NCBI GenBank assembly: GCA_902790595.1
Contig: CADASL010000005.1
Span: 127,672-191,671 of the forward strand
Length of the DNA: 64,000 nucleotides
Direction: 5' to 3'
Origin: an uncultured Bacteroidales bacterium
Lineage (GTDB): Bacteria; Bacteroidota; Bacteroidia; Bacteroidales; SZUA-534
Under the pieces are notes generated by a model that saw nothing but the letters and a program-made list of their open reading frames with translations, did no database searches and was not told the origin of the DNA. Positions 686 through 10,605 of this stretch are shown piece by piece. Numbering within the stretch: the first letter of the stretch is position 1; each line of letters starts with the position of its first letter. Made by a program: the position numbers and the translations under genes.

Positions 686-2400
686 TACTGGAATTTGGTT
701 TTGGGGAATTTATACGAATAGTTTGCCACGTTGCCGCAATTGTCGGTTACCATCAGCTCAAACTGGTAAGAATCAGCGGGTTTCAAGTATTCATCGGCCT
801 CGTAGGTGATTGATTTCGTCTTCGGGTCGTACTTCAGCAGAATCCACTCGCCATTGATTGAGGCCGAATACGATTTTATGCCTGCCAAATCGTCGTCGAT
901 AGTGAATTTGAGCACATTAACAGGCTGTTTTGCAACAGGTTTAATGGTTGGCGGAACGCTGTCGGCCTGAATGCGATACGTTCCGAATCCTGACAATGCG
1001 GCCTCAACAAATCCGTTTTTGTACTTGCCGCCAATGCCCGCAACCTTGTCGCCACTCACCGACACCAGAAGCAGTTTCGACGTTGGAACCTTGTCGCCCA
1101 AGCATTTAACCCGCACGTTGAACTCCTTTACAAGCGGAATGGCTGGCGTGCAAATTGTGTAAGTCGGCGAATACGAACCAATTACAATATTTGTATCGAT
1201 TTTCAAATTGAAATAGATGGAATCGAAAAATGTCCGTTTGCCGAAATCGATGGCAATGCCAGCCGTGTCGATTCGGTGCTGGTCTTCCCACGAAAGCAGC
1301 TGTCCCTCAGGCTTTTGAACCGACTTATTAAGCGCCACGCCTTGCAGAAAAGTCTCGAATGTCGATTTGTTGCCATAAGCGTCGTAGGCATCAATTTTCA
1401 CCTTCTTCACCTTGCCCGCCGGCACTGATATCAGACCGCGGTTCTGCATTGTCGGGTAAAGCTCAATGCGGTTGTTGCTCTCGACAAACAGTCTGTAAGC
1501 CACTGTGTTACTGGTCATCAGAGCCTCGTAGTCGGCAATGCTGCTCACATATTTCGTCTGCGAGAACGGCACGCCGTCGATGCGCATTGTGAGCACAATC
1601 TCGTCGCCGTCCCAAACATCGAACTTGTAAACTCCGCAACGGTTGTTTGCGCCGTTCAGATAATCGTCACACTTAATACCAAGTCCCACAGTGCCAAATA
1701 CTTGAATAGTATCGGCACCGACCGGCTTGTACACATTGCCAACCTTCTGCACCCTGACGGTGCTGCGGGCATACTCCCCTCCGACCTGCGAATTGCTGTT
1801 GCCCGGAAACACTGTGAACAGCGACATCCGCGGCGCAATGTCGTCTTTTATGTCGAAGCCAAGAAACAATCCGTTGAGCGGACAGGAATTGCGTGTGTCG
1901 CGAATCTCAAAATGCAGGTGCGGCCCACCCGACGAGCCTGTATTTCCCGACAGACCAAGCACATCGCCCACGCTGACGGGAATCTCGTCGGCCTTCGGGA
2001 ACAAATCAACGGCAAAACTCTTGCGGCTGTACTGTGCATCGCGCACATAGCGCCCAATCTGAATGTTGAACTCGCGCAAATGGGCGTAAAGCGATGTGTA
2101 ACCATCTGGATGAGTGACATATACCGAGTGACCATAGCCTGTTGGCGACACCTTGATGCGCGACACGTAACCGTCTTTCACCGCATACACGCGGAACCCC
2201 TCCTTGCCCTGCGTTTTCATATCGAGCCCGGCGTGAAAATGTCCGCTGCGCAACTCGGCAAAGTTTCCCGAAAGGTAAATCGGAATATGAAGCGGCGATT
2301 TCCAACCCAAAGTGTCGAGCCGGAGCTGAGCCGGAGCGGTGTTGGTGGCCAAAATGATGGTAAAAAGTACAATTATTTTATTCAGATATTTCATTATCAA
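685..2400 (-). CDS. M23 family metallopeptidase, secreted
   Basis: Signal peptide; HxxxD (HAGLD), YAHL and HxH (PHLHFE) motifs; long C-terminal extension. Confidence 0.88.
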   Translation of the reverse strand: MIMKYLNKIIVLFTIILATNTAPAQLRLDTLGWKSPLHIPIYLSGNFAELRSGHFHAGLDMKTQGKEGFRVYAVKDGYVSRIKVSPTGYGHSVYVTHPDGYTSLYAHLREFNIQIGRYVRDAQYSRKSFAVDLFPKADEIPVSVGDVLGLSGNTGSSGGPHLHFEIRDTRNSCPLNGLFLGFDIKDDIAPRMSLFTVFPGNSNSQVGGEYARSTVRVQKVGNVYKPVGADTIQVFGTVGLGIKCDDYLNGANNRCGVYKFDVWDGDEIVLTMRIDGVPFSQTKYVSSIADYEALMTSNTVAYRLFVESNNRIELYPTMQNRGLISVPAGKVKKVKIDAYDAYGNKSTFETFLQGVALNKSVQKPEGQLLSWEDQHRIDTAGIAIDFGKRTFFDSIYFNLKIDTNIVIGSYSPTYTICTPAIPLVKEFNVRVKCLGDKVPTSKLLLVSVSGDKVAGIGGKYKNGFVEAALSGFGTYRIQADSVPPTIKPVAKQPVNVLKFTIDDDLAGIKSYSASINGEWILLKYDPKTKSITYEADEYLKPADSYQFELMVTDNCGNVANYSYKFPKTKFQ

Positions 2401-2539
2401 TCATTTATCAATACAAACAGAATCATCGAACGGAGGTGCAAATTACAAAAAATCGCGTATAAATCGCCATTCAACAAACATCCTTATATATATGGTGCAG
2501 GCATCGGTGAAAAAAATCGCGAAAGCGGCAAAACAAACA

Positions 2540-2570
2540 TTTGCAAAATCAAAATCAATCAGTACTTTTG
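2540..2570 (+). promoter_or_regulatory. Bacteroidota sigma-A promoter for rpsF operon
   Basis: TTTG (2540-2543), 19 nt spacer, TACTTTTG (2563-2570). Confidence 0.75.
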
Positions 2571-2603
2571 CACCTCGATTTTTAACAAATAAAATTAAAT
2601 TTT

Positions 2604-2954
2604 ATGTCAAACAGTTACGAGACCGTTTTCATTGCAAATCCCGTTTTGTCTGCACCACAGATGAAGGAAGCGGTTGACAAATTCAAAGGCGTTATCACCG
2701 ATATGGGAGGTGAAATCGTTTACGAGGAGGACTGGGGCCTCCGGAAATTGGCTTATCCAATTCAAAAGAAATCCACAGGATTCTACTATCTGGTAGAGTT
2801 CAAAGGTGAGGGCAACATCATCGGCAAGCTCGAAACCGAGTACCGCCGCGACGAGCGCATTATGCGTTTCCTCACTATGAAGATGGACAAGTTTGCTGTT
2901 GAGTACGCAAACAAGAAAAGAAGTTTAAAATCTGAAGCTAAGAAGGAGGAATAA
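2604..2954 (+). CDS. rpsF: 30S ribosomal protein bS6
   Basis: YETVFI...[16 protein letters not shown] motif; operon context. Confidence 0.98.
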
Positions 2955-2957
2955 GCC

Positions 2958-3227
2958 ATGTCACAGAATTCATCAGAAATCAGGTATCTTACCCCGCCGA
3001 CAGTAGAAATCAAGAAGAAGAAATACTGCCGTTTCAAAAAGAACAAAATCAAGTACATCGACTACAAGGATCCAGAGTTCCTGAAACGTTTCCTGAACGA
3101 GCAGGGCAAGATTCTTCCGCGTCGCATCACCGGAACATCGCTGAAATACCAGCGCAAGGTGGCCACCGCTATCAAACGCGCCCGCCACTTGGCTTTGCTT
3201 CCGTATGTAACTGATATGCTTAAATAA
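2958..3227 (+). CDS. rpsR: 30S ribosomal protein bS18
   Basis: IDYKD...[10 protein letters not shown]...[19 protein letters not shown]. Confidence 0.98.
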
Positions 3228-3241
3228 TAGGAGGATAGGAT

Positions 3242-3688
3242 ATGGAAATTATTTTGAAACAGAACGTTCCAAATTTAGGATACAAAGACGACATCGTTAC
3301 CGTTAAAGACGGCTACGGACGTAACTATCTGATTCCTCAGGGTATGGCAATTGTTGCTACCAACGCCGCCAAGAAGATCCTGGCTGAGAACAAGAAGCAA
3401 CGCGCCCACAAAGAGGAGAAAATCAAAAACGACGCAATCGCACTGCGCGCACAAATCGAGGCTCTTACCATTGTTATCGGCACAAAAGCCAGCTCGAATG
3501 GTAAAATCTTCGGTTCTGTCAACAACATCCAGCTTGCCGAGGCAATTCAGAAACAGGGTGTTGAAGTTGACCGCAAGTGCATTCTCGTTAAAGGCGACAA
3601 CATTAAAGAACTTGGCAAGTATGTTGCCAAAATCAAACTCCACAAAGAGGTTGAGTTCGAGTTGCCGTTCGAGGTTGTTGCAGAATAA
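3242..3688 (+). CDS. rplI: 50S ribosomal protein bL9
   Basis: MEIIL...LG..DDIVTVKDGYGRNYLIP; GKIFGSV. Confidence 0.98.
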   Translation: MEIILKQNVPNLGYKDDIVTVKDGYGRNYLIPQGMAIVATNAAKKILAENKKQRAHKEEKIKNDAIALRAQIEALTIVIGTKASSNGKIFGSVNNIQLAEAIQKQGVEVDRKCILVKGDNIKELGKYVAKIKLHKEVEFELPFEVVAE

Positions 3689-3711
3689 TCTGAAACACAA
3701 TTCGATAAATG

Positions 3712-3742
3712 AAAGCCGTTCCGCTTGGGACGGCTTTTTTTT
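3712..3742 (+). terminator. Intrinsic terminator of rpsF-rpsR-rplI
   Basis: AAAGCCGTTCC-gctt-GGGACGGC followed by a T-run; recurs at ~4369-4395 and ~4993-5019. Confidence 0.85.
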
Positions 3743-3810
3743 GTGCTATAGCAAATTATTTTCTGAATAACTCATATATTTGTTCCACAAACTACCATTG
3801 GGGACAAAAA
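3715..3810 (+). repeat. Terminator+promoter repeat unit, copy 1
   Basis: Near-identical to 4369-4465; contains TATATTTG -7 box at 3775-3782. Confidence 0.9.
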
Positions 3811-3823
3811 CTATTATACAGCG

Positions 3824-4237
3824 ATGAAAAAGATTATTGATTTTTTTGTAGCGGCATATTTCAGTACAGTTTACAAAAAATATGAAGACCGTTTAGGAAA
3901 CGCCTTGTTGCTTTTAGAAATTTCATTTGCAATCAATGGATTATCCCTGTTTTTTTGTTCTATACCGCTTTTTTGTTCCCTGCCATATGTGGGGAAACAT
4001 ATAAAACTATCATCATCGTTTGCTTATGGGGCTATAATATTTCTTGTATTTATGTTGATCACATATATTGTCAAACATTTTCTTGAAAAATACTATTCTC
4101 AACAATATGATTATATAAAAGCTTATAGTGATAAAATTCCGCGAGTTTTATCAATATTGTTCGTTATAGTTCATTATTTGGGTTCTGCTTTTTTGGGGGT
4201 GTTCTGTATGAAATATACTTTATGTCTTAAACCATAA
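3824..4237 (+). CDS. Small multi-pass membrane protein, paralog of 4478-4870
   Basis: AT-rich ORF with about 3 hydrophobic segments; MKKIIDFFVAAYFS...SDKIPRVLSILFVIVHY. Confidence 0.8.
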   Translation: MKKIIDFFVAAYFSTVYKKYEDRLGNALLLLEISFAINGLSLFFCSIPLFCSLPYVGKHIKLSSSFAYGAIIFLVFMLITYIVKHFLEKYYSQQYDYIKAYSDKIPRVLSILFVIVHYLGSAFLGVFCMKYTLCLKP

Positions 4238-4298
4238 CAAGAAGTTTGGCACTTTGACAATCATCACAGGTGCTTCAGGTAATAACCTTATGGCAGAC

Positions 4299-4465
4299 AT
4301 TTTAAATCCGCAGGAGACCATTTCTTATGGTCTGCCTGCGGATTTTAATCTGTCAATCCGCATCGCACGCCGTTCCGTTTGGGACGGCTTTTTTTGTGCT
4401 ATAGCAAATTATTTTCTGAATAACTCATATATTTGTTACACAAACTACCATTGGGGGACAAAAAA
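4299..4465 (+). repeat. Hairpin+linker+terminator+promoter repeat unit, copy 2
   Basis: AAATCCGCAGG-AGACCAT/ATGGTCT-G-CCTGCGGATTT hairpin, then the terminator and promoter copy (TATATTTG 4428-4435). Confidence 0.9.
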
Positions 4466-4477
4466 AAGCATATGGTT

Positions 4478-4870
4478 ATGAAAAAGATAATTGATTTATG
4501 GGTAGCGGCATATTTTTCTATTTTTAGGAAATATGAGCAAAAAGGAATGATAAGCGGTCTTTATATTCTACAGTTCCTTTGGACTTTTAATATTTTCTCA
4601 ATTATTAGTTATCTGTCACAAATCCTGACAAAACGAATAACAATGAGTTTTTTACCAGTTGCTTTAACAATACTTGCCTTATCAATTTTTATGGGGAGTA
4701 AAATAAGAAATTGGTTGGATAAAATGTATTTTGACAATTGGGAACAAATAATACCAATAAGTGACAAAATACCAAAAACGTTGTCAATACTTATTTTGAT
4801 AGTTCATTATGTGCTAACTATTCTGCTTTTCTTTCTTTGTTTTAGATGTTTTAGATTCTTAGAAAGGTAA
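4478..4870 (+). CDS. Small multi-pass membrane protein, paralog of 3824-4237
   Basis: ATG at 4478 chosen by homology: MKKIIDLWVAAYFS...SDKIPKTLSILILIVHY. Confidence 0.8.
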   Translation: MKKIIDLWVAAYFSIFRKYEQKGMISGLYILQFLWTFNIFSIISYLSQILTKRITMSFLPVALTILALSIFMGSKIRNWLDKMYFDNWEQIIPISDKIPKTLSILILIVHYVLTILLFFLCFRCFRFLER

Positions 4871-4923
4871 TGAAAGAAACGATAGATAAAGATAGTAACC
4901 ATTAAACATAGTATATTCAGTTA

Positions 4924-5020
4924 ATTTTAAATCCGCAGGAACCATTTCTTATGGTCTGCCTGCGGATTTTAATCTATCAACCCGCATCGCACGCCGTTCC
5001 GTTTGGGACGGCTTTTTTTG
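4924..5020 (+). repeat. Hairpin+linker+terminator repeat unit, copy 3
   Basis: Near-identical to 4299-4396. Confidence 0.9.
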
Positions 5021-5122
5021 TTGCCCGTTTGGAACGCAGAATGAACTGATTTTCGCAGATTATTTTCACAGATTTTCTAGAATTTCGCTATTTTAGCTGA
5101 CGAAATAAATAAACAACATATT

Positions 5123-5749
5123 ATGAAAAATGCACTATTAACTTGTTTCGTACTTTTAGTATCATCATCTGTTTTTGCCCAGAATGCCATTATTGAAAAA
5201 GTCAGGCAAGAAACAGTGGCCGGTAAATTCCTTCAAAACACCACTTACTACAAGAGTATCAATGTCTATGAATATTTGGGTAGTGATGTGGAGATATTTG
5301 GCACTGTGCTGATAGACGAAATGGACAAAACGAAAAAAGTCGGCACTATTATGATTGCCGGAGATGGCTACAGTCTCAGTCAAAGCAAAATGCTGATGTT
5401 TACCCGCACTGCCTATTATCTAAATGTCAGCCAAATAGATAGCGTAGTGCTTGTTTTAAGACAGATTTGCGATGACATTACAAATCAAAGTCGGAATTTT
5501 ACAATTAATTATATTGCTGACGGAGGATTAGGATTCTTATACAATAGTCGCAGTAAAAAACTGCTTTTATTGAAATACAGCGTACCTGATTCTAACCCAA
5601 GCAGATATTCATACTATGAGGATTTAAAGCCGAATGGCGTGAACAATCAGAAAGTTGCGGAAATCAAGAATAGTGATATTGCCAAAATTATCACACTGCT
5701 AATTCAGGCCAAGAACAGTGTGGAAAAATATCTGCAAGAGAACAAATAA
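5123..5749 (+). CDS. Hypothetical secreted protein
   Basis: 208 aa, Sec signal peptide ending VFA-Q, AT-rich. Confidence 0.75.
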   Translation: MKNALLTCFVLLVSSSVFAQNAIIEKVRQETVAGKFLQNTTYYKSINVYEYLGSDVEIFGTVLIDEMDKTKKVGTIMIAGDGYSLSQSKMLMFTRTAYYLNVSQIDSVVLVLRQICDDITNQSRNFTINYIADGGLGFLYNSRSKKLLLLKYSVPDSNPSRYSYYEDLKPNGVNNQKVAEIKNSDIAKIITLLIQAKNSVEKYLQENK

Positions 5750-5797
5750 CTATTGGTCAGACACTGTTTAATGAGTTGTATTACATATTCTAATGCT

Positions 5798-6796
5798 ATG
5801 ACAATTCGATTATCTATAATTTTTTTTGTGTTATTCCCTTTACATATAGTCGCTCAGAGTAATGCAAAACTATTAAATGACACTATTTTCTTGCCGTACA
5901 GATATGGCGTGATTATTCAAGAAGATGACACAATAGATATAGTTGAATTAACTACAAGCACTTGTGAACATATTATGGATGTCAGGGCAAAAGATATTGT
6001 TGACTTAACGACAAGCAATTATGGACATATTATGGATGTTAGGGTAAAAGAAAGTAATGATGAAACATATCAAATTTTATATACGCGTACCGGCGTGGAA
6101 TCGATAAAAAAAAGCATAAAATACGCAGTCAAAAGTAATGGTGACATTGTTTTGTCCAATTCGGCAAGCTACGATTCCATTTTTTCTAAAGCGCTGACTC
6201 ATAAAAAGTTTTTGGAATCAGATAAAGTGGATACAATTTACAATTGCATTAACTGGAGTACAAAGATTCCCAAAAATCTGGAATGCAAGATGGACACATA
6301 CCAAGAGTATTACGATTTCATCCGTTACCCGCTTTATGTCAGAAGGTTGTTTTATACATACCACTTACATAAGATGAACGAAAATGCGTTGAATATTGAT
6401 TCCACACCAAAATTACGTGTTTTGTTTCCTGAACATTCTGGTTATCAAGATGAAAAAGTTTATGGATTGACTTTCAGTATATATAACGACAGTATTGTTT
6501 GCACCAACAAAACAATCGACATTTGTGATACTGATTATTATAAAGTTAGCTATCACAAATTGGGTAAAATACACGACAAAAAAATGAGGAATTTGTTAAG
6601 TAGTATATCAGAATATTCGGGGTATGATATGACCAAAACAATAGGATTTGTTTCGAATCCGGTTTTAATTGAATATTTTAACGGAGAAAGCACTGCAACA
6701 TATCTGATAGACAAAGAGTTTGACAAACCAGACAAAAAACTTTGGAATGTATATAATGAGATTTGTCAATTGGCTATGATGATGTTTCAAAACTAA
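5798..6796 (+). CDS. Hypothetical secreted protein with a 19-aa tandem duplication
   Basis: AT-rich ORF; ATG 5798 gives a signal peptide (MTIRLSIIFFVLFPLHIVA-Q); start uncertain. Confidence 0.7.
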   Translation: MTIRLSIIFFVLFPLHIVAQSNAKLLNDTIFLPYRYGVIIQEDDTIDIVELTTSTCEHIMDVRAKDIVDLTTSNYGHIMDVRVKESNDETYQILYTRTGVESIKKSIKYAVKSNGDIVLSNSASYDSIFSKALTHKKFLESDKVDTIYNCINWSTKIPKNLECKMDTYQEYYDFIRYPLYVRRLFYTYHLHKMNENALNIDSTPKLRVLFPEHSGYQDEKVYGLTFSIYNDSIVCTNKTIDICDTDYYKVSYHKLGKIHDKKMRNLLSSISEYSGYDMTKTIGFVSNPVLIEYFNGESTATYLIDKEFDKPDKKLWNVYNEICQLAMMMFQN

Positions 6797-6852
6797 AACG
6801 CCATTTTAAACATTTAGAAAATTCGACGCTTAACATCGGCATTTCTAAACAT

Positions 6853-6883
6853 AAAAAAAGCGCCTTTCGGCGCTTCCTTTTTT
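6853..6883. terminator. Bidirectional intrinsic terminator
   Basis: A-run AGCGCC-tttc-GGCGCT T-run between convergent genes. Confidence 0.75.
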
Positions 6884-6884
6884 G

Positions 6885-7118
6885 TTATGCTGCATATTTT
6901 TTAGTTTTCTCAACTTTTTTGTAACGCTGGTGCATCTTAACGAACACCTCTTCCAAAGCCTGCTTAATGCCTTTGATGGCCGACTCTCCGCCCTTGCCCT
7001 TCTTGGCTTTCTCAAGTTTCTTTTCGAGTTTGCTTGCTTTCATCTGCGACTTGTGCAACTTGCGTTCGGCAATCTCCAACGACTCTTTGCTTCTCAGTTT
7101 GTCTTCTGCGGTTTTCAT
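6885..7118 (-). CDS. Small Lys/Glu-rich helical protein
   Basis: 77 aa, ATG start, ends right at the terminator. Confidence 0.6.
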   Translation of the reverse strand: MKTAEDKLRSKESLEIAERKLHKSQMKASKLEKKLEKAKKGKGGESAIKGIKQALEEVFVKMHQRYKKVEKTKKYAA

Positions 7119-7266
7119 AACTCAAAAATTTAAAAGTTCAACAATCTCTCCTGAGACCTCGTTTCCTTTGGTTTCAGTTCTCTAAAGATATAGCATAAAA
7201 ACCGAAAAAACACATTATTTCTTCAAATATTATTTTCGTATATTGCCGTGTTTTAAACATTTTGAA

Positions 7267-10200
7267 ATGAAATTGAAAAGAACCATATCGGCGGTTCTGT
7301 CAGCATTGATTGTAATCGCTTCATTATCAAACGTATCAGCACAAAAAGTCAAGGGCTATCTGTCCATCAAGGGCACCGTGAAAATCGAGCACGACAACTT
7401 CGCCGTGTCAAAAGTCAAGGTGTTTGTCGATGGCTCGCTCGACAAAATCTACGACGCCGACAAGACCGGACGCTTCAGTTTCAACATCGATTTGAACAAA
7501 CAAGTGGTGCTTGAAATATGCCGCCAGGGCTTCTACAGCAAGCGGCTTGAGTTCAACACCAACGTGCCGGTTGAGGACGTGGGCATCTGGAACTACAAGT
7601 TCAGCATTGAGCTGCTGCCCGAGGTTGACGGTTTCGACGCCTCGATTCTGGACCAGCCCATCGGCAAGATAAAATTTGTGGAAAAGATTGGCGATTTCGA
7701 CTACGACGAGGCCTACACCGCCGAGATGCAGAAGCGCCTGAAAGCGATGATGAAAGACTATGAGCAGAAGCGCCGGGCCACATTCGAGCGGCTGATTGCC
7801 GAAGCCGACGCCCAGTTCAGCCAGGCCAACTACGAAGAGGCCGTGGAGCTCTACACCAAAGCCATCGATGTTGACCCTTACGACCCCTACCCCGACAACC
7901 AGATTTCGGCTATCAAGAAGATTCTGGCAAAGAACCAGAACAACGACAAGAACTACCAGAAGAACATTGCCATTGCCGACGAGTCGTTCAACACTCAGCA
8001 GTACACCAACGCGCAGATTTACTACAAGCGCGCCCTCACCTATAAAGATGACCAGTATCCGAAGGACCAGCTGCTGAAAATCGACCGCATTCTGGCCGAG
8101 CTGTCGGATGCCGACGCCGCATTGGCCGCCAAGGAGAAGGCTTACCGCGACGCCATTGCCGAGGGCGACAAGAACTTCTCGGCCAAGAAGTACGAGGAGT
8201 CGCTGGCACGATTTAGCGAGGCGGCGTCCATCAAGCCTAACGAGCAGTACCCGAAAGACAAAATCACCGAGCTGAACGCCATCATTGCCAAACTCCGGAA
8301 CGACGCGGCCAACCAAGCCGCAATCGACAAGGCTTACGCCGAGGCCATTGCAAAAGCCGACAATCTGTATGGCCAGAACAATCTTGTTGACGCGCGCATC
8401 AACTATGTGAAAGCCAAAGAGATAAAACCAGCCGAGACTTATCCGCAAACACGAATCAACCTCATCGACAAGCAACTGGCTGCCGACAAGGCCAACACCG
8501 AGAAGTACAACGGATTCATAAGCGTGGCCGACAACGCGTTTGCCAAACAAGATTACAACTCGGCCAAATCGGCATACCAGCAGGCCGCGGCGCTGAAACC
8601 TAACGAGGCCTATCCGAAGCAGCGGATTGCCGAAATCGACAACCTGCTGGCTCAACAGAAAGCCGACAAGGCCAACGAGGGCTACAACCGCTTCATTGCC
8701 CTGGCCGACGCGGCGTTCAACAAAGAAGACTGGGCATCGGCAAAGAGCAACTACCAGCAGGCGCAAAGCTTCAAGCCCGAAGAGCAATATCCGGCTCAAC
8801 GCCTTGCCGAGATTGACCGTCTGATTGCCGACCGCGCCGCCAAGCGGAAGCTGTACGACGCCGCCATTGCCAAGGCCGACAAACTCTACGACAAACGCAA
8901 CTGGGAGGAGGCGAAATCGGCCTACAACGAGGCTTTGGCACTCTTCCCCACCGAGGCCTACCCGCAAAGCCGCATAACCGACATCGACAGCCGGCTGCTG
9001 GCAATGAAGAGCGCCGAAGAGCAGAAACGTGCAATTGAAAAAGCTTACGCCGACGCCGTGCGCAAGGGCGACAGCCTGCTCAACCTGAAGCTGTACAACG
9101 AGGCTAAAAACTCATTCAATCAGGCACTTGCAGCGAAGGCTGCCGAAAAATACCCGAAACAGAAGATTGCCGAAATCGACAAGCTGCTGGCACAACAGAA
9201 AGTATTGGATGACAAGTACATAAATCTCATTTCGTATGCCGACGACCAGTTTGCATCGGGCAAATACCCCGAGGCCCGCGGCAACTACGTAAGCGCGTTG
9301 CAGCTGAAGCCCGAAGAGACCTACCCGAAAGAGCGCATTGCTGAGATTGACAAACGTCTGGCCGAGCAAAAGATTGTGGCTGAGAAGATTGCAAAAGACA
9401 ACGCGCAGTATGACAACCTGATTGCCCAAGCCGACGCCAAGTTCAAAGCAGAGGACTTCACTCAGGCCAAGGCTCTCTACAGCCAGGCATCGGCGGTGAA
9501 GCCAAACGAGATGTACCCGAAGAACCAGATTGTGGAGATTGACAATATGATTGCCAAGGCCGCCGAACGCGACCGCAACTACAGTCAGGCTGTTGCAACC
9601 GCCGACGGTTACTTTAGAGAGAAGAAATACGCCGAGGCCATCAACGCCTACAACCAGGCTTTGAGCATAAAGCCAAACGAGGCTCACCCGAAGCAGAGGA
9701 TTGCTGAGGCTCAGGCATTTATCAACGCAGAGAACCAGAAGCGCCAACAATATGCGGCACTTATCACACAAGCCGACAACCTGTTTGCGCAGAAAGACTA
9801 CGCCAATGCGAAGCCTGTCTATCAGCAGGCTCTGCAACTGATGCCCAACGAGCAGCATCCGCAAACGCGCATCCAACAGATTGACAGCTTCTTAGCCGAA
9901 GCCGCGCAACGCAAGGCCGAGCAGGAGAACCAGCTCCGCTCCTACAAGGCGAAAGTGGCTGAAGCCGACCGCGCATTCAACGCCCGCAACTACGACAATG
10001 CCATCGAGCTGTACAGCGCCGCCAAGACCATCAAGCCCGACGAAACTTACCCCGACCAACAGATTGCGCAAATCAGCGCCAACATAAAAGCCGAAAAAGA
10101 GCAAGAGCGTCTGGCAAAAATCGATGCTGACTACAAAAACGCTGTCGCCCAGGCAGATGCGGCATATAAGGCAAAAGACTATTCGGCAGCCATCGGTCTC

Positions 10201-10605
10201 TACCGTTCGGCATCGGCTATAAAAGCCACCGAAAAATATCCGAAAGACCAGATTGAGCTGTGCGAGAAGCTCATCCGCGATAGCAACGCCCAAGCGCAAG
10301 CCGAGGCCGAGCGCCAGCGCAAAGAGCAGCTGGCCGCAGCTCAAAGCTCATTCGACAACAAGAAAGACTTTGATGTGCCGACCGGCCAACGTAGCGACCA
10401 CTTCCTCAACGAGCTGGCAAAACAGTATCCTGAGGGCATCACGGTTGAGAACTACGACAGCAAGGGCAAGAAGGTGAAACGTGTGATTGTGAACCGCGGA
10501 GGCCTTGCCCACGAGTACATTGAGGCAAAATACTCATACGGAACCTACTACTTCCGCGACGGACGAAGCATTTCGTCGCAGGTATTCTATAAAGAAACTA
10601 AATAA
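7267..10605 (+). CDS. Large secreted TPR-like repeat protein
   Basis: Signal peptide, N-terminal beta-rich domain, 14 helical repeats ending in KPxExYP-like motifs, distinct C-terminal domain. Confidence 0.88.
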   Translation: MKLKRTISAVLSALIVIASLSNVSAQKVKGYLSIKGTVKIEHDNFAVSKVKVFVDGSLDKIYDADKTGRFSFNIDLNKQVVLEICRQGFYSKRLEFNTNVPVEDVGIWNYKFSIELLPEVDGFDASILDQPIGKIKFVEKIGDFDYDEAYTAEMQKRLKAMMKDYEQKRRATFERLIAEADAQFSQANYEEAVELYTKAIDVDPYDPYPDNQISAIKKILAKNQNNDKNYQKNIAIADESFNTQQYTNAQIYYKRALTYKDDQYPKDQLLKIDRILAELSDADAALAAKEKAYRDAIAEGDKNFSAKKYEESLARFSEAASIKPNEQYPKDKITELNAIIAKLRNDAANQAAIDKAYAEAIAKADNLYGQNNLVDARINYVKAKEIKPAETYPQTRINLIDKQLAADKANTEKYNGFISVADNAFAKQDYNSAKSAYQQAAALKPNEAYPKQRIAEIDNLLAQQKADKANEGYNRFIALADAAFNKEDWASAKSNYQQAQSFKPEEQYPAQRLAEIDRLIADRAAKRKLYDAAIAKADKLYDKRNWEEAKSAYNEALALFPTEAYPQSRITDIDSRLLAMKSAEEQKRAIEKAYADAVRKGDSLLNLKLYNEAKNSFNQALAAKAAEKYPKQKIAEIDKLLAQQKVLDDKYINLISYADDQFASGKYPEARGNYVSALQLKPEETYPKERIAEIDKRLAEQKIVAEKIAKDNAQYDNLIAQADAKFKAEDFTQAKALYSQASAVKPNEMYPKNQIVEIDNMIAKAAERDRNYSQAVATADGYFREKKYAEAINAYNQALSIKPNEAHPKQRIAEAQAFINAENQKRQQYAALITQADNLFAQKDYANAKPVYQQALQLMPNEQHPQTRIQQIDSFLAEAAQRKAEQENQLRSYKAKVAEADRAFNARNYDNAIELYSAAKTIKPDETYPDQQIAQISANIKAEKEQERLAKIDADYKNAVAQADAAYKAKDYSAAIGLYRSASAIKATEKYPKDQIELCEKLIRDSNAQAQAEAERQRKEQLAAAQSSFDNKKDFDVPTGQRSDHFLNELAKQYPEGITVENYDSKGKKVKRVIVNRGGLAHEYIEAKYSYGTYYFRDGRSISSQVFYKETK

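Follow-up and report, generated by a model that had tools for sequence, protein, structure and literature searches.

A probable orphan immunity gene array at the former site of an Rhs toxin, behind rplI in an uncultured ruminant-gut Bacteroidales bacterium

Introduction

In the T6SS (type VI secretion system) clusters of Vibrio cholerae, arrays of orphan immunity genes form by sequential displacement of effectors (Kirchberger et al., 2017, PMC5361080, as stated in the accessible part of that paper). In this paper we looked at two small membrane-protein genes, ORF1 and ORF2, which stand among repeated non-coding units behind the ribosomal protein gene rplI in a stretch of 64,000 nucleotides (nt) from an uncultured Bacteroidales bacterium (assembly GCA_902790595.1, contig CADASL010000005.1, positions 127,672 to 191,671; hereafter the window). 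Judging by their genomic setting, ORF1 and ORF2 are most likely leftover immunity genes of an Rhs-type toxin, whose cognate toxin gene has been deleted, and the array was probably built by toxin loss together with general recombination at the rplI terminator and its flanks. Such a locus is most closely described by the sequential displacement model and by the orphan modules known from Rhs and contact-dependent inhibition (CDI) systems.

The V. cholerae arrays are similar in that a change of toxin module leaves the old immunity genes in place downstream, arrays vary by strain, and homologous recombination acts in conserved flanks with no dedicated recombinase (PMC5361080, same part). They differ in that the toxin here is an SpvB/FG-GAP/RHS protein, not a T6SS effector, and is wholly gone from the window, that terminator-plus-leader scars between the cassettes would give each its own transcription signals, and that the anchor is a ribosomal-protein operon. 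Orphan toxin–immunity modules downstream of the main rhs or cdiA gene were reportedly described by Poole in 2011 and by Koskiniemi in 2014, the latter being cited in PMC5361080. These systems have, like the present locus, a constant 5' part, a variable 3' part made of toxin and immunity gene, and displaced modules joined via short toxin-gene sequence. Here, in contrast, the displaced part comprises ~12–37 toxin codons only, with no usable tip, and would supply immunity and not new toxins.

Gut Bacteroidales carry arrays of acquired interbacterial defense (AID) genes, of which the recombinase-associated type rAID-1 has as its defining feature a XerD-like recombinase gene at the 5' end (Ross et al., 2019, 10.1101/471110, in the portion available). 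The array resembles these systems in its low-GC, co-directional, short orphan immunity genes and its repeated intergenic DNA (10.1101/471110 and PMC12247911, both in the portions available), and it contains, as rAID-1 arrays do, at least two co-directional genes with a GC content of 41% or less. The gene upstream is rplI, however, and since the defining 5' recombinase is absent the locus is not an rAID-1 system. It also differs in occupying the toxin's own former locus and in having repeats whose sources are recognizable: a terminator, the leader of an operon, and relics of the toxin. Polyimmunity loci are likewise tandem, strain-variable groups of distant paralogues of a single immunity type (termed 'homogeneous') for which pre-emptive defense was proposed (Zhang et al., 2012, PMC3482391, accessible part). 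The same source suggests a single polycistronic message for them; here every gene comes with a leader and a terminator of its own, and there are only two genes, from an unnamed, very rare family. As in integrons, variable genes are stacked in one direction with a hairpin-forming element after each, but no IntI integrase, attI or common promoter is found here, the cassettes have their own leaders and some joints lie in relics; the locus is not an integron.

Structure of the array

Mapping of the sequence units gave the order rplI-T-P-ORF1-H-L-T-P-ORF2-H-L-T, where T is the rplI terminator, P a leader block, H a hairpin and L a linker. This is the layout that a first-pass annotation had read from the DNA, with three copies of T and two each of P and H, and every unit was recovered at its place. 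The name rplI is presumably correct, being taken from that annotation and from the gene order rpsF-rpsR-rplI. Handles beginning with G denote genomes, G000 being the window's own (3.34 Mb in 13 contigs, 98.6% complete, 48.6% GC). The features are:

3242..3688, + strand: rplI, the last gene of rpsF-rpsR-rplI and conserved left anchor of the variable locus (from the open reading frame list)
3715..3742, + strand: T1, the rplI intrinsic terminator, a constant junction unit and the sole copy at the empty site of G014
3743..3810, + strand: P1, its 5' part (3743..3791) homologous to the Rhs operon leader of G002 and G010, with a TATATTTG box at 3775–3782
3799..3840, + strand: toxin relic 1, the last 13 Rhs toxin codons and the stop (WGQKLLYSDEKDY, stop), overlapping the ORF1 start
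3824..4237, + strand: ORF1, a 137-amino-acid helical membrane protein with three hydrophobic segments, predicted orphan immunity gene
4299..4350 (hairpin) and 4351..4368 (linker), + strand: H1 and L1, the conserved 3' module of the island
4369..4396, + strand: T2, the terminator copy that separates the cassettes
4397..4494, + strand: P2, the second leader copy, with its box at 4428–4435 and a frame-broken toxin 3' relic at 4452–4494
4478..4870, + strand: ORF2, a 130-amino-acid membrane protein, predicted orphan immunity gene from the other deep clade
4924..5020, + strand: H2-L2-T3 (H2 4924–4974, T3 4993–5020), the right end of the array; T3 bears the right flank of the empty site
5021..5749, + strand: leader and gene of a 208-amino-acid secreted protein, a second cassette type downstream of T
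5753..6796, + strand: a low-GC gene of 347 amino acids with a hydrophobic N-terminus, not at this site in G002, G014 and G013

T consists of a hairpin followed by a run of T, about 29 nt in total, and all three copies were called by a terminator scan (6 sites found, 0.9 expected). T1 and T2 align with 26 matches, 1 mismatch and 1 gap, and T2 equals T3 across 27 compared bases. The T-P units (3715–3810 against 4369–4464) give 93 matches, 2 mismatches and 2 gaps in 97 columns, the H-L-T units (4299–4396 against 4924–5020) 95 matches, 2 mismatches and 1 gap in 98 columns, and overall the non-coding units are 96–98% identical, whereas the ORF bodies (3862–4237 against 4516–4870) give 230 matches, 90 mismatches and 91 gaps. 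The contrast between near-identical non-coding units and divergent genes, which had drawn attention to the locus, is therefore real. The head-to-tail spacing of the units is 654 and 624 nt.

Both copies of H fold into an 18-bp bulged hairpin (z-scores −8.0 and −4.6; 0 of 200 shuffles fold as well), and an Rfam scan of 2400–7400 at E ≤ 1 returned no match, so H belongs to no known RNA family. A reading of L or H as a diverged rplI 3' end plus spacer was rejected (score 14 against a shuffle mean of 12.4, equaled by 531 of 2000 shuffles), which leaves T as the only duplicated part; a reading of H-L as an Rhs gene relic was rejected too, as tblastn with the G002 Rhs protein gave no match there. 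When the units were searched in the 3.34-Mb genome, P and H were found nowhere else, and T-like terminators with 2–3 mismatches were found at C8:106560, C12:91166 and C12:93494 (C handles denote contigs). The cassettes sit in an islet of ~27–36% GC (3700–7200), in which four co-directional genes have ~27–38% GC.

The same site in related genomes

The cassette DNA was sought by DNA search in 60 related genomes and the units were then mapped onto the retrieved loci. It was found only in G002 and G010, which belong to the same genus, and the flanks were found in several others as well. The records of G002 and G010 are metagenome-assembled genomes labelled 'Salinivirgaceae bacterium', from sheep abomasum and rumen. 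In G014, rplI-T is followed directly by the 208-amino-acid gene that in the window follows T3; this empty site has flanks 97–100% identical to the window, its rpsF-rpsR-rplI genes being 98.4–100% identical at the nucleotide level. G002 carries, on its 5' side, rplI-T, a leader, a gene for a 158-amino-acid protein with a type IX secretion system (T9SS) sorting tail and an SpvB-like start that runs into a contig end, and on the next contig an FG-GAP/RHS protein of more than 1517 amino acids followed by four genes of the ORF1/ORF2 family. The last two of these are parted by H-L-T-P, and the array ends with H-L-T and then the 208-amino-acid gene. G010 has the same type of toxin, then two family genes and H-L-T, so that the H-L-T module closes the arrays of G002 and G010 as it does that of the window. 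The site thus holds no family gene in G014, two in the window's genome, four behind a toxin in G002 and two behind a toxin in G010, and the suggestion that the region behind rplI varies in cassette number and content was borne out. The ORF1 subtype is common to position 1 of G002 and position 2 of G010, and ORF2 is 99.7% identical in nucleotide sequence to the gene at position 3 of G002, where its context is different.

In G011 other genes occupy the site and are bounded by L-T, the equivalent module having kept L-T and lacking H, so that the locus varies in the kind of cassette at its T junctions as well. The L-T, 100-nt leader and first ~25 codons (the signal peptide) that belong to the window's 208-amino-acid gene recur there within a ~380-nt repeat, in front of both a 208-amino-acid and an unrelated 244-amino-acid gene (L033 3369–5342). 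The gene that follows T3 in the window counts as a cassette type in its own right. The repeated 3' module of G011 (L033 4146–4295 and 5193–5342) holds the Rhs repeat fragments MIKPYTYDANGYLT and YSFDGATGNLK, which match residues 929–946 and 1000–1010 of the G002 toxin and are what is left of an rhs gene after extensive deletion, duplicated together with the cassettes.

At the nucleotide level the window's genome and G002 are 100% identical in rpsF and rpsR and 98.9% in rplI (window 2604–3688); the 208-amino-acid gene is 95.7% identical, while right of the island the 77-amino-acid and TPR genes (window 6885–8500) are only 76–77% identical and on the left the synteny stops near 2540. This pattern suggests a recent recombination tract that spans the ribosomal genes and the island, in which the rpsF-rpsR-rplI operon is a long homology anchor on the left.

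The toxin, its relics and the origin of P

The toxin locus at the site in G002 and G010 gives matches to the RHS, FG-GAP, SpvB and Por_Secre_tail families; in the toxin, RHS_repeat (1.7e-23) and Rhs_assc_core (2.1e-18) are followed by a tip of ~260 amino acids that has no family match. In both genomes the end of the toxin gene and the start of the first family gene share 17 nt (toxin end NWGQKLLYNDEKDY, stop). The question whether homologues lie next to Rhs toxins, raised by the first-pass annotation, is thereby answered: they lie directly downstream of, and co-directional with, a variable toxin C-terminus that has RHS repeats and core upstream of it. A gene's position, its overlap with the toxin, co-variation and stacking together form the usual signature of polymorphic-toxin immunity genes (PMC3482391, in its accessible part).

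Every further family gene has a dead copy of the toxin end upstream. The G002 relic before the gene 99.7% identical to ORF2 reads GLGVTIDKASDNWGHKLLYSDEKDN and stop, that of G010 IIDKASNNWGQKLLYGDEKDN and stop. By tblastn the G002 relics gave E values of 4.7e-8, 0.038 and a weak 1.8 (position 4), the G010 relic 1.6e-6 and that of the window 3.8e-4. Relics precede all six orphan genes examined, three in G002, one in G010 and two in the window, where the ORF2 relic is frame-broken, and the orphans retain about 12–37 codons of the toxin 3' end.

The relics also give an origin for P. Its 5' part matches the operon leader of G002 and G010 at 30 of 36 positions, at the same offset from T, a score reached by 0 of 2000 shuffles, and its 3' part is toxin relic; for these reasons P is a deletion scar, in which the Rhs operon leader is fused to the last ~13 codons of a deleted toxin. 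The TATATTTG box lies within the leader homology, and we take it to fit the Bacteroides −7 promoter consensus. One and the same leader–relic junction stands in the two window copies of P and ahead of the final G002 gene; having arisen a single time, it later spread to three different immunity alleles.

A six-frame search of the 13 contigs for the cognate toxin returned only a 42-amino-acid relic (E 0.045), although a gap in the 98.6%-complete genome could hide one. Rhs cores are present elsewhere in the genome. The lack of the toxin, its remnants beside the orphan genes and a content that varies between species are features of a displacement array, and the locus has all three. Since the genome holds neither a copy of this toxin tip apart from the relic nor other family genes, ORF1 and ORF2 are best regarded as orphan immunity genes. 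The first-pass annotation had already likened them to stockpiled immunity genes, a resemblance that the relics, the Rhs adjacency and the absence of the toxin support.

The immunity and toxin proteins

ORF1 and ORF2 were first described as matching only at their ends. This was corrected by protein alignment: they are homologous over their full length, with 31% amino acid identity over 123 residues (E 6e-17), the best-kept parts being the N-terminus and the SDKIP..LSIL..IVHY stretch. Among 5.8 billion proteins the family makes up just 21 clusters. Within the genus a search found it in 3 of 16 genomes, and 17 genomes of other genera of the same taxonomic family gave one weak partial match (G022, E 1e-4); ORF1 and ORF2 are the only members in the window's genome. 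In a scan of JGI metagenome contigs none of 289 pattern matches was confirmed as a family member, and a protein atlas placed ORF1 among unnamed Bacteroidota clusters only. The ORF1 model shows three long helices and short ones, with a predicted local distance difference test (pLDDT) score of 87.8, in agreement with the three hydrophobic segments.

A tree built from 26 family members places ORF1 and ORF2 on opposite sides of the deepest split (midpoint-rooted, support 96/96), and each is far closer to relatives in other genomes and samples than to its array neighbor. This agrees with the earlier view that a plain tandem duplication does not fit. The ratio of nonsynonymous to synonymous substitution (dN/dS) is 0.28 between ORF2 and the 82%-identical gene at position 4 of G002. 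Some members look mosaic: P0003 equals P0002 at both ends and differs in the middle helix, and P0007 combines the N-terminus of P0009 with the C-terminal part of the gene at position 2 of G002, which suggests recombination within the immunity genes themselves.

The toxin tip is predicted to be all-helical, with two hydrophobic, glycine-rich segments. It occurs in 30 representative clusters among 1.84 billion proteins, each match stopping no more than ~10 residues short of the protein C-terminus; several come straight after the Rhs core-end motif, and one full-length member of 2164 amino acids has SpvB, FG-GAP, TcdB_midN and RHS domains. Ruminant-gut samples are given in all rows of the toxin-tip/immunity pair that name a source. 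Pfam and NCBIfam gave no family for the tip, and a PDB fold search with the model of the toxin domain gave no match at E ≤ 0.001, the best rows of this search and that with the ORF1 model being unrelated helical proteins with TM-scores of 0.17–0.47. The protein atlas offered colicin and glycine-zipper leads at 0.89, under the 0.9 line, and the tip gave no Pfam match to the colicin pore domain PF01024. To a colicin-type pore former there is a resemblance in style alone: both pair a hydrophobic, helical toxin with a small immunity protein in the membrane.

Co-folding of the G002 toxin tip with the adjacent family protein scored 0.39, compared with 0.00 for the best of three controls, in runs that agree in at least 91% of contacts and with a partner pLDDT of at least 74. 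Of the solved complexes, 116 of 157 attain this mark, as do 2 of 215 mismatched pairs (rough counts, as our own alignments were used), and among those attaining it 18 of the 157 solved complexes and both mismatches scored 0.60 or under. The predicted complex gives weak support for the toxin–immunity pairing.

Junctions in metagenomes

Further arrangements were seen in four ruminant-gut metagenome runs (X2, X3, X4 and X8), whose short-read contigs were aligned at 90% likeness; stretches of the window without coverage in these runs give no information on absence. X8 has a single cassette, rplI-T-P-ORF1-H-L-T, followed by other DNA. In X4 the order is reversed, T-P-ORF2-like gene, 52 nt, ORF1-H-L-T and then other DNA, with no H-L-T-P between the genes. 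X3 has toxin 3' coding sequence, and not P, upstream of ORF1, and its ORF2-H-L-T is joined to the leader of a 162-amino-acid gene which in G011 follows rplI-T. In X2, L-T-P stands before an ORF1-like gene. Single cassettes, reversed order and other neighbors thus add to the variation seen in genomes.

Taking all sources together, T has three left-hand neighbors. On its right stand P, the leader of the 208- and 244-amino-acid genes, that of the 162-amino-acid gene, the Rhs operon leader, the region of a 77-amino-acid gene in G010, and unidentified sequence. Otherwise unrelated cassettes have nothing but T and the ~100-nt blocks T-P and H-L-T in common. Junctions without T, via toxin 3' relics, are found in G002, G010 and X4.

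Discussion

The anatomy of the array, its relics, its variation between genomes and the absence of the toxin are seen directly in the DNA, and they can be arranged into a history. The site downstream of rplI in this ruminant-gut Bacteroidales genus would be a hotspot for a polymorphic toxin island of the Rhs type. The full island, as in G002 and G010, would comprise the small protein with a T9SS tail, the SpvB/FG-GAP/RHS toxin, its cognate three-helix membrane immunity gene and older immunity genes, each preceded by the 3' end of the toxin gene that it presumably once served. Recombination would have replaced toxin–immunity modules, shifting old immunity genes downstream with the relics that record this step. 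Toxin genes would then have been deleted between leader and toxin end, an event to which P testifies as the scar. Finally, unequal or flank-anchored exchange at T, T-P or H-L-T may gain or lose whole units, a step that we infer from the empty site and the arrangement variants. The two ORFs would be old alleles from a toxin–immunity arms race that were brought together recently, the flanks serving as recombination substrate; the non-coding units would be nearly identical because they are recent recombinational copies. Both genes most likely shield the cell from membrane-active Rhs toxins of co-resident relatives, a toxin the cell itself appears not to make.

Several points weigh against this history. 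We infer immunity from gene position, overlap and relics and promoter activity of P from sequence, and the sigma-70 scan model does not cover Bacteroidota. Neither ORF matches a Pfam or NCBIfam family, and Foldseek with the ORF1 model found no PDB match at E ≤ 0.001. In G002 and G010 alike the toxin gene is broken across contig ends, the immunity family is carried by three species only, a small sample for comparison, and metagenome joints accepted at 90% likeness may derive from repeats or other organisms. With ~29 nt, T is short for RecA-type exchange, and the strong hairpin that closes each cassette at its 3' end recalls the attC site of integrons.

This hairpin belongs to another possible explanation, an integron-like platform in which T or H is an attachment site and a distant recombinase captures and shuffles circular, self-expressing immunity cassettes. 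The first-pass annotation had leaned toward such self-expressing cassettes, swapped at repeats; of this idea the recombination at T and its flanks stands, but P is no free-standing cassette promoter, being the leader–relic scar. We consider the platform improbable, even though all joints between unlike cassettes are at T, with several different right-hand neighbors, and although rAID-1 arrays of Bacteroidales also carry integron-like intergenic repeats (10.1101/471110, in the portion available). Other joints run through toxin 3' relics (G002, G010 and X4) and not through T, the G011 module keeps L-T without H, and each cassette has its own leader, unlike integron cassettes. In addition, as had been noted from the start, there is no recombinase in the window, nor is a dedicated one found nearby; the genome's only two PF00589 tyrosine recombinases, on C1 and C11, are in housekeeping contexts and neither leads into two or more low-GC genes. 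General, unequal, flank-anchored recombination together with toxin displacement and deletion therefore fits better than a self-mobile, integron-like cassette. A related proposal, to which we give slightly less credit still, is that the rplI terminator, with or without H, is the true attachment site of a recombinase-poor, terminator-anchored cassette-capture platform, in which self-transcribed immunity genes could be loaded behind the ribosomal operon by a host Xer-type or other trans-acting enzyme.

Tandem duplication in place, with fast divergence of the coding parts and gene conversion that kept the flanks alike, would account for the head-to-tail units with 654- and 624-nt spacing and for the homology of the proteins. 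It is very hard to reconcile with two genes that straddle the deepest, midpoint-rooted split of their family and have closer kin elsewhere, with the 99.7% identity of ORF2 to another species' gene in a different context, with the reversed gene order in X4, or with a dN/dS of 0.28, which indicates purifying selection and not runaway change. The function of the genes may also be questioned: they could encode toxin accessories (for export, activation or a holin-like activity) or phage-exclusion proteins, the array being a decaying, functionless remnant. The lack of a family or fold match and the weak support for binding leave room for this, as do further scars of decay, namely the broken relics in the window and the Rhs repeat fragments in G011. 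An accessory would be useless without its toxin, yet both genes are intact with their own leader and terminator, the dN/dS between ORF2-type genes compared across genomes is 0.28, and divergent paralogues stacked behind one toxin are a known immunity signature (PMC3482391 and PMC5361080, in their accessible parts), which makes a non-immunity role unlikely.

If ORF1 and ORF2 are indeed orphan immunity genes, the locus would hold the readable scars of a weapon locus turned into a pure shield, with the toxin deleted, its leader kept and antidote genes taken from neighbors stacked. It would be a natural record of how an orphan-immunity array grows without a dedicated recombinase, in which the source of each repeat can be traced; for rAID arrays of gut Bacteroidales the same question of growth is stated as open (PMC12247911, in the portion available). 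The junction units would supply each orphan gene with its own leader and terminator. The defensive strategy itself is already known and the locus is a tidy new example of it. What is new is a very rare toxin-tip/immunity family, a locus without the weapon but with the shield, and junction units that can be read base by base; the rare pair that it defines would consist of a membrane-active Rhs toxin domain and a three-helix immunity protein.

Neighboring genes and a similar locus

The 347-amino-acid gene on the right has a hydrophobic N-terminus and no family match. Its sole homologue in the genus is in G011, at another place, split over two contig ends and beside unrelated genes. The X2 and X8 contigs part from the window exactly at 5750, just before this gene. 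Further right, the window encodes at 7243–10605 (+ strand) a protein of 1120 amino acids with many ~35-residue repeats and the motif ..YP..RI.EID..; a long antisense open frame overlaps the gene, which is the conserved right border of the variable locus.

Two of the T-like terminators on C12 belong to a 170-nt direct repeat (C12:91022–91191 and 93350–93519) around a 2.3-kb insertion with an AT-rich gene of more than 418 amino acids. Each copy joins the final ~115 nt of an EF-G-like gene to a spacer and the T-like terminator, the right copy differing from the left mostly in the coding part. In having foreign DNA between copies of a housekeeping terminator this locus resembles the rplI site, which for the less likely terminator-anchored capture platform is a hint that the process may be general.

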